From: Escherichia phage Turkey5
Strand: one strand, 5' to 3'
Sequence record: PQ471516.1
DNA length: 64,000 bases
Position 1 is the first letter of the stretch. Each line of letters opens with the position of its first letter. A model generated the notes under the pieces. It was given only the letters and a program-made list of their open reading frames with translations, had not been told where the DNA came from and searched no databases. Of the stretch, positions 9,447-51,613 are shown piece by piece. The translations under genes were made by a program, and so were the position numbers.

Positions 9447-9475
9447 TTGACAACCCTAGGTGCTGTGCGTATAAT
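9447..9475 (+). promoter_or_regulatory. sigma70-like promoter with -10 inside an inverted repeat
   Basis: TTGACA, 17 nt, TATAAT; gtgctg...cagcac flank the -10. Confidence 0.6.
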
Positions 9476-9522
9476 GTTTATCACTGAGCAGCACTTATCT
9501 TAACTTAAATGAGGAATACATA

Positions 9523-10656
9523 ATGTCCGAGAAAGAAATCAACCCTAAAAAATCAACTGCTAAAGCCGCTAAAACTGTACGTCGCACGACCAAAGCAAAA
9601 GGTAATACTTTTGATTCGAGTGATATCTTTGAACAGACAACTAAATCTCTACCAGTACTGAAAGATGCCAAAGGCAACAGCATGTCTCTTACCGTTGAGA
9701 ACATCAATACCATCGGTACTTCTGCTGGTGCAAACGTTGGTCGCTTGGCAGACCAGATTATGTCTAAAGTGAACGTAACTGATGACAACTCTGAGTTTGG
9801 TCAGTCCATTACTACTATTCTGTCTCTGACCCGTGCTGTTGATATTGACAGTCTTCAGGATGATAAGTCCATCGTTGGTTGGGTACGTAAACTCTTTGTT
9901 AATGCTAAACAGAAAGTTGGCGACCAGTACAAAAACAGTAAAGAGCAGATTGATGAAATCATGAACACTCTCCAGACTGGCATTAACCGTCAACATGGTG
10001 AATGTGAGTGGCTTGATACTGCTTACAATGAAAACAAAAACTACCTTTTCGAACTGCGTGATACCTTAGCAGAACTGGAAGTAGTAACCAAGTCACAAGA
10101 TGAACGACTAACTGAAATGCAAGCAGATAGCGAAACTGATACCTTCGCAATCCAAGAGCAGAAGATGATCTGTGAAGCACTGTCTAAGCAGGAAGATAAG
10201 ATTCGTCGTCTGATTATCATGTGTGAGCTAAGTGCTCCACGTCTGATGAGCATGAAGAAAGTAAACCTGAACACTGTTTCTAAGTTTGAAGATCTGAAAT
10301 CTGTTGTTATTCCAGCATGGAAATCCCAACTGGCAGAGCAGTTGATTTCTGAACGTCAACGTAAAGACAATGAATTGGGTAATTTGATTGATAACGAAAC
10401 TAACCGTTTGTTGGAAGTCAACTCTAAGATGGTAGCAACTAACATGCTAGATGCTGCTAAAGCAAATAACCGTGGTATTGTGGATATCAAAACATTGCGT
10501 AACGTACATAAAACTACAATCGACGGCATCGAAGCTGTACTGATTGAAGAGAAGAAAGGCAAAGAAGAACGTGAGCGTGCTAAAGTTGAGCTACTACAGC
10601 TTTCTCATGACCTCGAAAACACTCTGCGTGAAATTGCAGATAAATCTAACAAATAA
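9523..10656 (+). CDS. hypothetical charged, probably coiled-coil protein
   Basis: 377-aa ORF, strong RBS GAGGAA, basic N-terminus. Confidence 0.6.
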   Translation: MSEKEINPKKSTAKAAKTVRRTTKAKGNTFDSSDIFEQTTKSLPVLKDAKGNSMSLTVENINTIGTSAGANVGRLADQIMSKVNVTDDNSEFGQSITTILSLTRAVDIDSLQDDKSIVGWVRKLFVNAKQKVGDQYKNSKEQIDEIMNTLQTGINRQHGECEWLDTAYNENKNYLFELRDTLAELEVVTKSQDERLTEMQADSETDTFAIQEQKMICEALSKQEDKIRRLIIMCELSAPRLMSMKKVNLNTVSKFEDLKSVVIPAWKSQLAEQLISERQRKDNELGNLIDNETNRLLEVNSKMVATNMLDAAKANNRGIVDIKTLRNVHKTTIDGIEAVLIEEKKGKEERERAKVELLQLSHDLENTLREIADKSNK

Positions 10657-10659
10657 TAG

Positions 10660-10715
10660 TTGACACTAAGGTGCGTTTCAAATATAATACTCTTATTGAA
10701 ACGCACCTTCTTTTT
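10660..10715 (+). promoter_or_regulatory. composite promoter and terminator hairpin
   Basis: TTGACA, 17 nt, TATAAT with the -10 lying in the loop of hairpin aaggtgcgtttcaa/ttgaaacgcacctt followed by CTTTTTT. Confidence 0.6.
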
Positions 10716-10738
10716 TAAATTAATGAAAGGATAAAATA

Positions 10739-11425
10739 ATGAAACGTCGTCATGTTGCAGTTGATATCGAATGTTTAGGCACACCAGAAAACTCCGGTTA
10801 TGACATTATTATTCCTAACTATGCAGTTGTTATGGTTCCATCCAAACCAACTCACAACATCACTAATTTTTTCTATGTTAAACAGCCTTACCACGCACAG
10901 GTAAATGCTGGTTTGAAATCCGATGCTTCCGCTATGAGCTTTTGGATGAACAAATGTGCTAAAGAGTATCCAGGTGCTTATGAAGAAGTAGCCAGTACTA
11001 TGGATTTGGCAACTGCTGAAATCTACACCTCAAATGGTAAAGCGAAGAAAATCTTTCCAAATGATTTGATTGCAGAATTTTGGGATGAATTGCGTTATCA
11101 TTATGGTGAAGAAGTTCCACATTCGGTATGGGGTAATGGTTGCCACTTCGATTGTAGTATCCTTGAAGCTAACCATCGCAAACTGTACGGCAAAACCGGA
11201 ATGTGGAGTTACGATGCACCAGATAATGCTCGCACTATTAAACGCTTACTGAATGATGCAGCACGTCAGGAAATGGATGAAATTGTGGCAGTACAGTTAC
11301 CTAAATTTGTACAGTTCGCAGAATCCTGTGATGTTAAGGGTTTAGAGCTACATCATCCACTGTTTGATGCTGCACGTGAAGCAATTCAGATTTCTTACTG
11401 TCTCAATAAATTGAAATTGGATTAA
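10739..11425 (+). CDS. DEDDh-type 3'-5' exonuclease (DnaQ/DexA-like)
   Basis: Exo motif I VAVDIECLG (D-x-E), central D in HFDCSIL, C-terminal HHPLFDAAREA (H-x4-D). Confidence 0.6.
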   Translation: MKRRHVAVDIECLGTPENSGYDIIIPNYAVVMVPSKPTHNITNFFYVKQPYHAQVNAGLKSDASAMSFWMNKCAKEYPGAYEEVASTMDLATAEIYTSNGKAKKIFPNDLIAEFWDELRYHYGEEVPHSVWGNGCHFDCSILEANHRKLYGKTGMWSYDAPDNARTIKRLLNDAARQEMDEIVAVQLPKFVQFAESCDVKGLELHHPLFDAAREAIQISYCLNKLKLD

Positions 11426-11429
11426 TACG

Positions 11430-50009: not shown

Positions 50010-50297
50010 ATGTTTATTCCTAATAATTCTAAAATTGGAACACAAGTACAACTTCTAGAAGATGTAAGTACTTGCAGTGGCACTTTCACTAAAGGTCACA
50101 TCTTAACTATCACAGGTGAAACCGAGCGTGGTTATGATTTGGAAGATGCTGATGGTAATCGTATCTTAGAAGCAGGGTTTAGTCGTTTTGTTGAAGTGGA
50201 TAGTACTGACCAGAAAGAAACAGAAGGTCATTGTTTTGATTACCAAGAAGTTAACTCAAAATGTATCTGTGGTGAAATTTATAGTAAATGGGATTGA
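50010..50297 (+). CDS. hypothetical protein
   Basis: ORF. Confidence 0.5.
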   Translation: MFIPNNSKIGTQVQLLEDVSTCSGTFTKGHILTITGETERGYDLEDADGNRILEAGFSRFVEVDSTDQKETEGHCFDYQEVNSKCICGEIYSKWD

Positions 50298-50414
50298 CAT
50301 AGTATAGAAATACTATATAATGTTTATATCAAAGGGAATGCAGTGAAAGGAAAGACAGCATAATCGTACTCGTCACTGCGTTTCCACCCTTTTAAATTAA
50401 ATGAGGAATTAATT

Positions 50415-50723
50415 ATGTTTCAAACTAACACTCAAGGTTTTGTAATCATCGATCTGAATAAAAACAGCGGTCATTGGATGAAACCTACTGACGCATGTAT
50501 GCAGTTTGATTTCTTAGGTTATAAAATCAGTGTAAGCACTGGTGGTTCAGTACTGCGTGGTGGTTGTATCGTTGAACATCTCGTCACTGATCCTGAAGGC
50601 CGCGAATACGAAATCGCAGGTTCAGTACAAGATGCTATCATGTTCGTGTGTCAGCGTGAAATGAATGGCAGTAACAGCAACGCACTGACAAACGCATTAT
50701 CACAAGAAGTGGAGGTTCGTTAA
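50415..50723 (+). CDS. hypothetical protein
   Basis: ORF with RBS GAGGAA. Confidence 0.55.
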   Translation: MFQTNTQGFVIIDLNKNSGHWMKPTDACMQFDFLGYKISVSTGGSVLRGGCIVEHLVTDPEGREYEIAGSVQDAIMFVCQREMNGSNSNALTNALSQEVEVR

Positions 50724-50968
50724 TGAAATATATTGTTTTAGTAGTAATGGCGTTTTTACTGAGTGCTTGTGATGCAAGTACGAAAGACCGAACCAGTGAA
50801 TTCCTTCTTCCTACTGAGTTAAAGGATGCTGGGTGTAAGATTTACCGTATGCGTCAGGAAGGTGATGGTGCAACTTTGTACACAGTTTACTGCCCTCATG
50901 CTAATACCAGTACATCTTTCCGTACAGGAAAGACAACCGTACATGCATCTGTCATCAATGGTGAATAA
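50723..50968 (+). CDS. lipoprotein
   Basis: Signal peptide with lipobox LLSAC. Confidence 0.6.
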   Translation: MKYIVLVVMAFLLSACDASTKDRTSEFLLPTELKDAGCKIYRMRQEGDGATLYTVYCPHANTSTSFRTGKTTVHASVINGE

Positions 50969-50969
50969 C

Positions 50970-51335
50970 ATGGGATTGGACACAACTAAAGCCCAAGAAC
51001 TACATAGGCGAGCAATGAATGAAGAGTTTTTAGCAAACATTCGCTATAAGATGGAGAAGCTATATCGTAGTGCTGAAATCTTAGAAGACAAAAAACCTTC
51101 CATGACTACAAAATATTTCAATATCACTAACGACATTTGTTATAGTCCAGGTGAAATTTGGATTGAGTGGGAGTCTTGGACAGGGGATATTCTTCGTGTA
51201 CAAGGTTACTGTGTTCAATACGCTTTCGACGGTAATTCTAAATCACTGAAGGTACTATGTACTAATACGAATGATGTAGTGGATGTCAACTTACATTGTA
51301 TTAAATGGGTTGACTTTGGAGATGTAGATGAATAA
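50970..51335 (+). CDS. hypothetical protein
   Basis: ORF; first ATG after upstream stop taken as start (ORF track frame opens at 50826). Confidence 0.45.
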   Translation: MGLDTTKAQELHRRAMNEEFLANIRYKMEKLYRSAEILEDKKPSMTTKYFNITNDICYSPGEIWIEWESWTGDILRVQGYCVQYAFDGNSKSLKVLCTNTNDVVDVNLHCIKWVDFGDVDE

Positions 51336-51588
51336 AATTAAATTCATTGTACTTATGGTTCTCATGTGTTTTTCACTCACTGGGTGTGATGAAGACCTTT
51401 CAGCTAAAACATTAGCTCGCTGGAACTGTAAGATGACTGGTGAGAAGTTCAAAACAGTCGAAAGTGTTTGTGTTGGTGAAGGTAGAAGCCGTTGTGATAA
51501 AATGGTTGACCACGAAGTGGAATTGTTTGTATATGATTGTCCAACAAAGGGTCGAGTACTGAGTAAAAGTGAGTTAATTTATAATTGA
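51328..51588 (+). CDS. lipoprotein
   Basis: Signal peptide with lipobox SLTGC. Confidence 0.6.
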   Translation: MNKIKFIVLMVLMCFSLTGCDEDLSAKTLARWNCKMTGEKFKTVESVCVGEGRSRCDKMVDHEVELFVYDCPTKGRVLSKSELIYN

Positions 51589-51613
51589 CAGTACACCACA
51601 AAAGGGATACAAT
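51585..51613 (+). promoter_or_regulatory. sigma70-like promoter
   Basis: TTGACA, 17 nt, TACAAT; gggatac aat gtatccc inverted repeat around -10. Confidence 0.55.

Follow-up and report, generated by a model that had tools for sequence, protein, structure and literature searches.

The promoter-early stem-loop (PeSL), defined in the T4-like phages RB49 and phi1 (Arbiol et al., 2010, PMC2839356), combines a strong sigma-70-like early promoter with a stem-loop in the space that separates the stop codon of one gene from the Shine-Dalgarno (SD) sequence and ATG of the next. The stem-loops often overlap the -10 hexamer, are drawn with G-T pairs in their stems and act as terminators or attenuators, one of them terminating as well as rrnB T1 in vivo, and PeSLs mediate the insertion, deletion and replacement of open reading frames (ORFs) (PMC2839356). 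They have been extended to T4/PST and KVP40/nt-1 (Comeau et al., 2014, PMC4122927). Here we analyze inverted repeats that enclose the -10 boxes of early promoters in Escherichia phage Turkey5 (PQ471516.1), within a stretch of 64,000 nucleotides (nt) that we call the window, six of which had been pointed out in a preliminary description of this DNA. Positions are those of the window, and features lie on the + strand unless stated otherwise. We assign a probability of about 0.6 to the reading that these repeats supply the stem-loop in composite cassettes of the PeSL type, which would terminate or attenuate read-through RNA while the embedded promoter restarts transcription.

The window represents the early region, that of host takeover, in a member of Asteriusvirus (121Q/Rak2-like), a jumbo myovirus of ~350 kb infecting Escherichia. 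It is close to Escherichia phage vB_EcoM_JNE01 (98.8% with a 3-kb probe), the same probe giving ~77% against the 121Q/PBECO4 group, and in the related phage CBB the RpoD-like promoters are concentrated in the equivalent region (PMC5259590). About 137 ORFs were called on the + strand of the 64 kb, nearly all of them small and tightly packed, and their orthologues in 121Q, JNE01 and A4 are almost all annotated as 'hypothetical protein'. The strict promoter pattern TTGACN-N16-18-TAnAAT has 31 matches on the + strand, 17-18 of them intergenic, and none on the - strand. A stop codon falls inside the -35 hexamer or at most 13 nt before it in 13 of 18 promoters; at six (23949, 32772, 39673, 50294, 51585 and 61500) the upstream gene ends with a TGA within the TTGACA itself, an extreme compaction of gene end and promoter. 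The distance from the -10 box to the ATG is uniform, 31-32 nt, in five cassettes. The A+T content upstream of the promoters is 70% against 64.5% window-wide, a modest enrichment.

These cassettes share with PeSLs the position of a sigma-70-like early promoter between the stop of a small ORF and the next SD/ATG, a stem-loop whose register varies (over the -10, over the -35 or between them), G-T pairs in the stems, a high density among small genes of undefined function, and a location at the breakpoints of insertions, deletions and replacements that distinguish close relatives, as seen here in a few events. They differ in that the stems are not polyG/polyC, most of the -10-enclosing stems have no U-run, and the ~350-kb Asteriusvirus genome is not of the Tevenvirinae type and thus lies outside the T4-like range; moreover, the compensatory conservation across genera seen here at one orthologous promoter is unreported for PeSLs. 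For the window the comparison covers sequence, whereas for PeSLs termination was seen in vivo and the formation of excised mini-circles is part of the description. As far as sequence can tell, every structural feature of a PeSL is present, and the host would extend the known range rather than break with the structural definition. None of the papers in the literature searched connects PeSLs with jumbo, RaK2 or Asteriusvirus phages, and the RaK2 and fEgEco12 genome papers make no mention of promoters.

All six inverted repeats of the preliminary description are present in the sequence; the positions by which it named them, kept here as site names, are the starts of the -35 hexamers and not of the repeats. 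At the promoter of the TelA gene (9447..9494; -35 at 9447-9452, -10 at 9470-9475), the arms GTGCTG(T) (9460-9466) and (G)CAGCAC (9488-9494) form six Watson-Crick pairs and one U.G pair around a loop of 21-23 nt. The element at 10660..10716 had been taken for a terminator as well, rightly so, since a 14-bp stem (10668-10681/10696-10709) is followed by CTTTTTT; it is the intrinsic terminator of the TelA gene, holding in its 14-nt loop the -10 of the next promoter (10683-10688; -35 at 10660-10665; T-run at 10711-10716), with an RNA folding energy of -19.2 kcal/mol and a z score of -8.75. Its 3' arm holds TGAAACG (10697-10703), the -35 consensus of a second promoter class in CBB and GAP32 (PMC5259590); the spacing misfits any -10-like box, and the match is probably a coincidence. 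In the cassette at 23949..23983, whose -35 (23949-23954) holds the upstream TGA stop, GGGAGT (23963-23968) and ACTCCC (23978-23983) surround the -10 (23972-23977), and the predicted +1 coincides with the end of the 3' arm. The cassette at 39673..39710, again with the TGA stop within the -35, encloses its -10 (39696-39701) between TATGTGCAC (39683-39691) and GTGCACATA (39702-39710), a stem of 9 bp with an RNA energy of -14.1 kcal/mol. At 46633..46678 (-35 at 46633-46638, -10 TACAAT at 46656-46661), GGAGTAC (46652-46658) and GTGCTCC (46662-46668) flank the trinucleotide aat and form seven pairs, one of them T.G (U.G in RNA), with TACTTTAAT following the stem; the RNA energy is -9.3 kcal/mol and the z score -4.9. 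The related cassette at 51585..51630 (-10 TACAAT at 51608-51613, TGA stop within the -35) carries AGGGATAC (51603-51610), aat and GTATCCCT (51614-51621), 8 bp and -10.8 kcal/mol as RNA, followed by ACTTTAAT; relative to the 46633 cassette it shows two pair swaps that preserve the pairing. The arms first reported were found at every site, those at 39673 (given as 6 bp) and 51585 having been drawn too short. RNA stabilities of the hairpins range from -8.4 to -19.2 kcal/mol. A further repeat, missed in the preliminary description, lies at 53814..53846, where AAGTTA (53823-53828) and TAACTT (53841-53846) enclose the -10 at 53836-53841; at the same junction, 121Q and Ecwhy_1 have a different promoter without this repeat. 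No Rfam family matched at the promoter sites, and a conserved mini-ORF starting from the ATG inside the 46633 and 51585 hairpins was ruled out, since 121Q and A4 do not preserve its length.

Short repeats could arise by chance in AT-rich DNA. In fact, stems of at least 6 bp enclose 8.9% of the background TAnAAT hexamers (0.6% for at least 8 bp), and the repeat at 9447 folds with a z score of only -1.7. However, 5 of 17 intergenic promoters have their -10 enclosed by a perfect stem of 6 bp or more and 3 of 17 by one of at least 8 bp, whereas swapping the downstream flanks between promoters gives expectations of 0.84 and 0.00, respectively (P<0.001). The preliminary description had named, as a result that would refute its reading, such repeats being no more frequent around TATAAT than in shuffled AT-rich sequence; the counts do not refute it. 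Pooling 57 non-identical promoters from four lineages (the window, 121Q, A4 and TH47), we counted eight stems of at least 8 bp where 0.17 are expected, and 30% of 74 promoter regions fold with a z score below -2. These flank-swap and background tests, and the compensatory changes and cross-genus conservation described below, refute the chance explanation, to which we leave next to no probability. The enclosing stem is a subclass, carried by about one-third of the promoters, and not a general property.

We located the orthologous junctions through their flanking proteins; the genome CMSTMSU, an apparent low-quality assembly, served solely as a second copy of the TH47 type. This comparison with related phages, which the preliminary description had called for, revealed compensatory changes at 9447, 10660 and 23949, and the TelA-promoter hairpin in 12 of 12 relatives. 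At 9447 the stem is retained in 121Q, TH47, A4 and BF17, with arms GTGCTG/CAGCAC in the window and 121Q, GTGTTGC/GCAACAC in TH47 and GTGTTGCTC/GAGCAACAC in A4; RNAalifold gives seven outer pairs, none broken and one compensatory (C-G in three, U-A in two), and each of three one-sided changes leads to a U.G pair on the + strand. The arms at 23949, GGGAGT/ACTCCC in the window, are GGAGTAT/ATACTCC in 121Q, TH47 and ECO103 and CGAGAGT/ACTCTCG in A4, the latter with a compensatory G-C to A-T change and with UCUUUU after the stem. A long stem surrounds the -10 at the 10660 position in every Asteriusvirus examined, in differing sequences: one compensatory pair separates the window from 121Q, and the 12-bp stem of A4 is unrelated. 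The equivalent of 10660 in K64-1, Hallingskeid, Kae01 and Yen9-03 is a plain terminator without a promoter.

The promoter of the TelA gene carries the comparison farthest. MAFFT misaligned the arms across genera because the loop lengths differ, and each sequence was therefore folded alone; the enclosing stem was the minimum free energy structure in all 12 relatives, drawn from Asteriusvirus, Alcyoneusvirus, Eneladusvirus, fENko-Kae01 and Erwinia phage Hallingskeid. The arms, GTGCTG in the window and 121Q and GTGTTGC in TH47, are AGTGCTGTAT/ATACAGCACT in K64-1, TAGTGCTG/CAGCACTA in fENko-Kae01, GAGAGTG/CACTCTC in Eneladusvirus and GGGAGTAT/ATACTCCC in Hallingskeid, and the TelA proteins are just 47-53% identical over these genus distances. 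What is conserved, to judge from these orthologues, is the pairing and not the sequence, and a twist relative to the known PeSLs is that compensatory change conserves individual -10-enclosing hairpins from one genus to another.

The block GGAGTACAATGTRCTCCTAMTTTAAT at 46633 is conserved in seven genomes, with the promoter spacer diverging freely; its wobble pair is U.G in six genomes and U-A in A4, whose stem is a perfect 9 bp. In the orthologues of this promoter the -10 has decayed to TACATT in JNE01 (region L002, 15397-15402) and the -35 to TTTTAC in ECO103. As the hexamers decay while the hairpin and the downstream motif stay intact, the hairpin block is more constrained than the promoter at this site. 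Conservation in sequence, beyond the pairing, would also be expected of an operator, with a dimeric phage or host regulator bound to palindromic half-sites over the -10, and arms resembling GGAGTA...TACTCC recur at 23949, at 46633 and in the Hallingskeid TelA promoter. We nevertheless hold this to be very improbable: the remaining arms (GTGCTG, TATGTGCAC, AAGGTGCG and others) are unrelated, the spacing between arms varies from 3 to 23 nt, and both arms change between orthologues inside one genus. A common operator was rejected on the unrelated arms and the variable spacing, in agreement with the preliminary description, which had thought one unlikely given arms that differ from site to site.

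When IMG/VR was scanned with single proteins for orthologous loci, each scan gave one locus; a pattern scan of viral contigs for the 46633/51585 motif matched 121Q itself alone, and a metagenome scan with a 14-base TelA-loop pattern gave 120 essentially random matches, none adjoining a TelA homologue. A short, unrelated metagenome contig, Ga0114922_10194012 (155-220), carries TTGACA-aaattt-CTCACTGTG-gtataatgtttat-CACAGTGAG; as this 9-bp repeat encloses a consensus -10, the architecture occurs outside this phage group too.

Repeats that enclose the -10 represent one of several registers in a general promoter-plus-stem-loop design. The motif GGTTGAC-N4-GTCARCC occurs in six copies in the window against 0 expected (48876, 55585, 57585, 59145, 59421 and 61036), exclusively on the + strand and as terminator-like hairpins with a T-run. 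In four of the six, the TTGAC within the stem serves as a -35, with the promoter's -10 lying another 17-18 nt on, and three use GTCAG in the second arm, which creates a U.G pair and leaves no TTGAC on the opposite strand. The terminator hairpin GGTTGACttcgGTCAACC (55585..55616) has the -35 in its stem, the T-run as spacer and TATACT as -10; GGGTTGACcgaaGTCAACCC (57584..57616) has the -35 in its stem and then TATAGT; in AGGTTGACttcgGTCAGCCT (59420..59451) and AAAAGGGTTGACttcgGTCAGCCCTTTT (61031..61067; z score -4.2) the -35 in the stem involves the U.G pair and is followed by TATACT and TATAAT, respectively. The type of cassette found at 61031, ~60 nt long, recurs many times in 121Q and A4. At 50294..50333 the stem, TAGTAT (50300-50305) with ATACTA (50310-50315), lies between the -35 and -10 hexamers. 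In A4 (region L004, 26055-26115) we observed two mutually exclusive hairpins in one cassette, the terminator GGGTTGAC-ataa-GTCAGCCC and the -10-enclosing CATAAGTCA...TGACTTATG.

The window hairpins resemble Rho-independent terminators in being stable and placed just past a gene, and the G+C-rich stem followed by a run of U that marks such terminators is found at 10660 and in the six GGTTGAC hairpins. They differ from them in that a promoter element is set within the stem or loop, and in that 9447, 23949, 39673, 46633 and 51585 have ~4-5 U in the first eight bases of the tail with no run of at least five.

In the mechanism that we favor, the cassette would be an intergenic module of ~50-85 nt made up of the upstream stop, a near-consensus sigma-70 early promoter, an overlaid stem-loop, and the SD and ATG of the next gene. 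Since the genes are co-oriented, polymerases from upstream promoters would transcribe through each cassette, and the hairpin would form in the read-through RNA. Hairpins with a U-run (10660 and the class with the -35 in the stem) would terminate, and the U-poor ones would attenuate more weakly or protect the 3' end. Sigma-70 transcription starts ~7 nt downstream of the -10; the embedded promoter would restart transcription at or just past the 3' arm, such that its own transcript would be free of the hairpin. With one restart per cassette, each small early gene would have its own dosage, with no build-up of read-through, and the repeated cassettes would double as recombination sites at which ORFs are added, deleted or swapped.

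The sequences show that the hairpins are present, are more frequent than chance predicts, are preserved through compensatory change, overlap the promoters in several registers and lie at indel breakpoints. From there, action on the RNA by termination or attenuation, with a start ~7 nt after the -10, is what these sequences most likely indicate. Support for action at the RNA level comes from the continuum with unambiguous terminators (10660 and the GGTTGAC class, with its + strand orientation), together with the U.G pairs of the + strand, namely that of 46633 in six lineages, those arising from the one-sided changes at 9447, and those of the TTGAC/GTCAG stems.

Several results speak against this proposal. 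Five of the six hairpins first described lack a canonical U-run, their tails being AUAUUAAU, UACUUUAAU or UUAUCUUAAC, and a consensus terminator scan of the + strand did not call the U-poor ones. The TelA-promoter hairpin, with a loop of 21-29 nt and no U-run in any genus examined, is unlike any terminator across the genera. In the homologous 42 kb of 121Q only 1 of 17 promoters has a -10-enclosing stem, and the form that 9447 takes in 121Q is more stable when folded as the - strand. Of 74 regions, 51 have the better fold on the + strand (51:22); however, shuffled sequences give 60:39, so the asymmetry is largely one of base composition, and with these composition-matched shuffles we dropped it as a way to tell RNA from DNA. 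In the literature searched we found no transcript-end data for this phage group; in phiKZ the experimentally mapped terminators have a short TTAT tail and not a long U-run (PMC10914365), which serves as an analogy only.

The same U-poor hairpins could be a distinct regulatory device, not terminators, by which transcription from upstream would be coupled to the embedded promoter, a doubtful alternative in our judgment. Its clearest case would be the TelA hairpin, found in four genera with a 21-29 nt loop holding the -10 and the start site. For example, a structure in the read-through RNA or in transient single-stranded DNA might toggle between 'read-through' and 'own-start', acting on the embedded promoter or on translation of the downstream gene.

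An RNA role other than termination, as an RNase E-type processing site or a barrier to 3'-exonucleases in polycistronic read-through RNA, is possible at low odds. The missing U-runs, the 3' arm ending at the predicted +1 with an A/U-rich TTAA/TAAT motif always next to it, and the conservation of the TelA hairpin across genera without a terminator tail would all suit it. Monocistronic mRNAs would result, their 5' end close to that of the primary transcript. On the other side, the A/U-rich motif may be merely the 5' untranslated region of the downstream gene, and 10660 and the class with the -35 in the stem are canonical terminators.

The preliminary description saw in the recurring geometry a structural role, with a cruciform or hairpin in the DNA modulating open-complex formation. 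The structural role is upheld by the conserved pairing, but its DNA form finds no support in the long loops, the weak DNA energies and the conserved T.G pair. That supercoiling extrudes a cruciform or hairpin which exposes or conceals the -10, with open-complex formation tuned as a result, is in our view improbable. The geometry of 46633 and 51585, with 3-nt loops and arms of 7-8 bp, is the most extrudable, the discriminator, which affects open-complex stability, is formed by the 3' arm, and the strand-asymmetry result is compatible with DNA. However, the loops measure 9-23 nt at 9447, 10660, 23949 and 39673 (four of six), the DNA hairpin energies are merely -3.5 to -8.1 kcal/mol (the terminator 10660 excepted), and by sequence and computed energies the sites do not combine near-perfect arms with a short spacer and the stability to extrude at natural superhelicity. 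Moreover, six lineages keep the T.G mismatch of 46633, every one-sided change at 9447 produces U.G on the + strand, and the obvious RNA terminators of the same cassettes follow the same hairpin logic, 10660 being a plain terminator in distant genera. Extrusion would also abolish the 17-bp spacing of -35 and -10, as the 5' arm is drawn from the spacer.

The short loops of 46633 and 51585 bring to mind another known system. The hairpin promoters of the phage N4 virion RNA polymerase have a stem of 5-7 bp and a 3-nt loop, and the two sites, with stems of 7-8 bp and 3-nt loops directly upstream of the predicted start, are alike in resemblance only. In contrast to N4, the window sites have the full sigma-70 consensus TTGACA-N17-TAyAAT and the other loops are of 9-23 nt, and N4-type hairpin promoters were ruled out because of this full consensus and because the loops vary. 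The examined stretches of 121Q, A4 and JNE01 have no annotated N4-like polymerase and encode sigma-like factors instead.

The turnover of cassettes was followed in a few events. The cassettes 39673 and 51585 are present only in the window and JNE01. At the junction of 39673 the flanking genes are at most 11 nt apart in 121Q, TH47 and ECO103, with no cassette, and A4 carries an additional gene there, likewise lacking the cassette; at the junction of 51585 the flanking genes abut in 121Q, A4, Ecwhy_1 and TH47, again with no cassette. An ORF of JNE01 (region L002, 19119-19397) is missing from the window. The crossover of this deletion is the 18-bp segment TATAATGTTTATATCAAA (50316-50333), common to both promoters that flank the ORF in JNE01, such that the 50294 cassette of the window joins the upstream half of the left JNE01 cassette to the downstream half of the right one. 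A second replacement relative to JNE01 begins at the promoter 59181. The missing ORF exists in JNE01 (within region L002, 19085-19416), in 121Q (gp173) and in A4, whose annotation makes it a small sigma-70-family protein.

The position of cassettes at indel breakpoints would also fit a by-product with no transcriptional function, the repeats being kept up by templated (quasi-palindrome) mutation or serving as recombination hot spots only. Templated mutation can imitate compensatory change, and the apparent compensatory changes could come from it. We find this explanation hard to credit: the crossover observed at 50316-50333 sits in the -10/+1 segment, outside the stem, the hairpins are in register with the promoter elements, and the same promoter keeps its hairpin at 47-53% protein identity with wholly different arms.

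Read as PeSL-type cassettes, these elements would extend the idea of modules for early transcription and gene shuffling from T4-like to Rak2/121Q jumbo phages. The early regions of the latter consist of hundreds of uncharacterized small genes, for which the cassettes would give a concrete rule to annotate transcription units, and they would explain part of the gene gain and loss between close relatives. The naturally covarying hairpins, that of the TelA promoter above all, offer a direct test bed for the function of a hairpin over the -10.

Other features of the window were observed along with the cassettes. An A/U-rich motif with TTAA/TAAT (ATATTAAyy or TACTTTAAT) begins at the predicted +1 of hairpin-bearing promoters (23984-23993, 39708-39717, 46669-46678, 51622-51630, 52900-52908 and 53848-53856) and is almost lacking in the homologous stretches of 121Q and A4. 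A spacer motif, AGTACTG(n)TATAAT, which includes the palindrome AGTACT, lies directly 5' of the -10 at 26433, 31676 and 32787 (also 61515 and 63963), with four matches against 0.23 expected, and is present at both tRNA-Ser promoters. ARAGORN called seven tRNA genes in the window, and a weak Rfam tRNA match at 31790-31868 (33.3 bits), which ARAGORN did not call, may mark an eighth tRNA gene or a degenerate one. Within the tRNA cluster there is a group I intron at 32996-33309 (Rfam RF00028, 95 bits), adjoined by an ORF of 234 amino acids at 33374-34078; the corresponding stretch in JNE01 differs and is annotated as 'HNH homing endonuclease # Phage intron'. At ~41900-43070 the series of + strand early genes is broken up by the sole - strand gene of the region, orthologous to the gene for the Ig-domain virion structural protein gp155 of 121Q, and the promoter 43066 comes after it.

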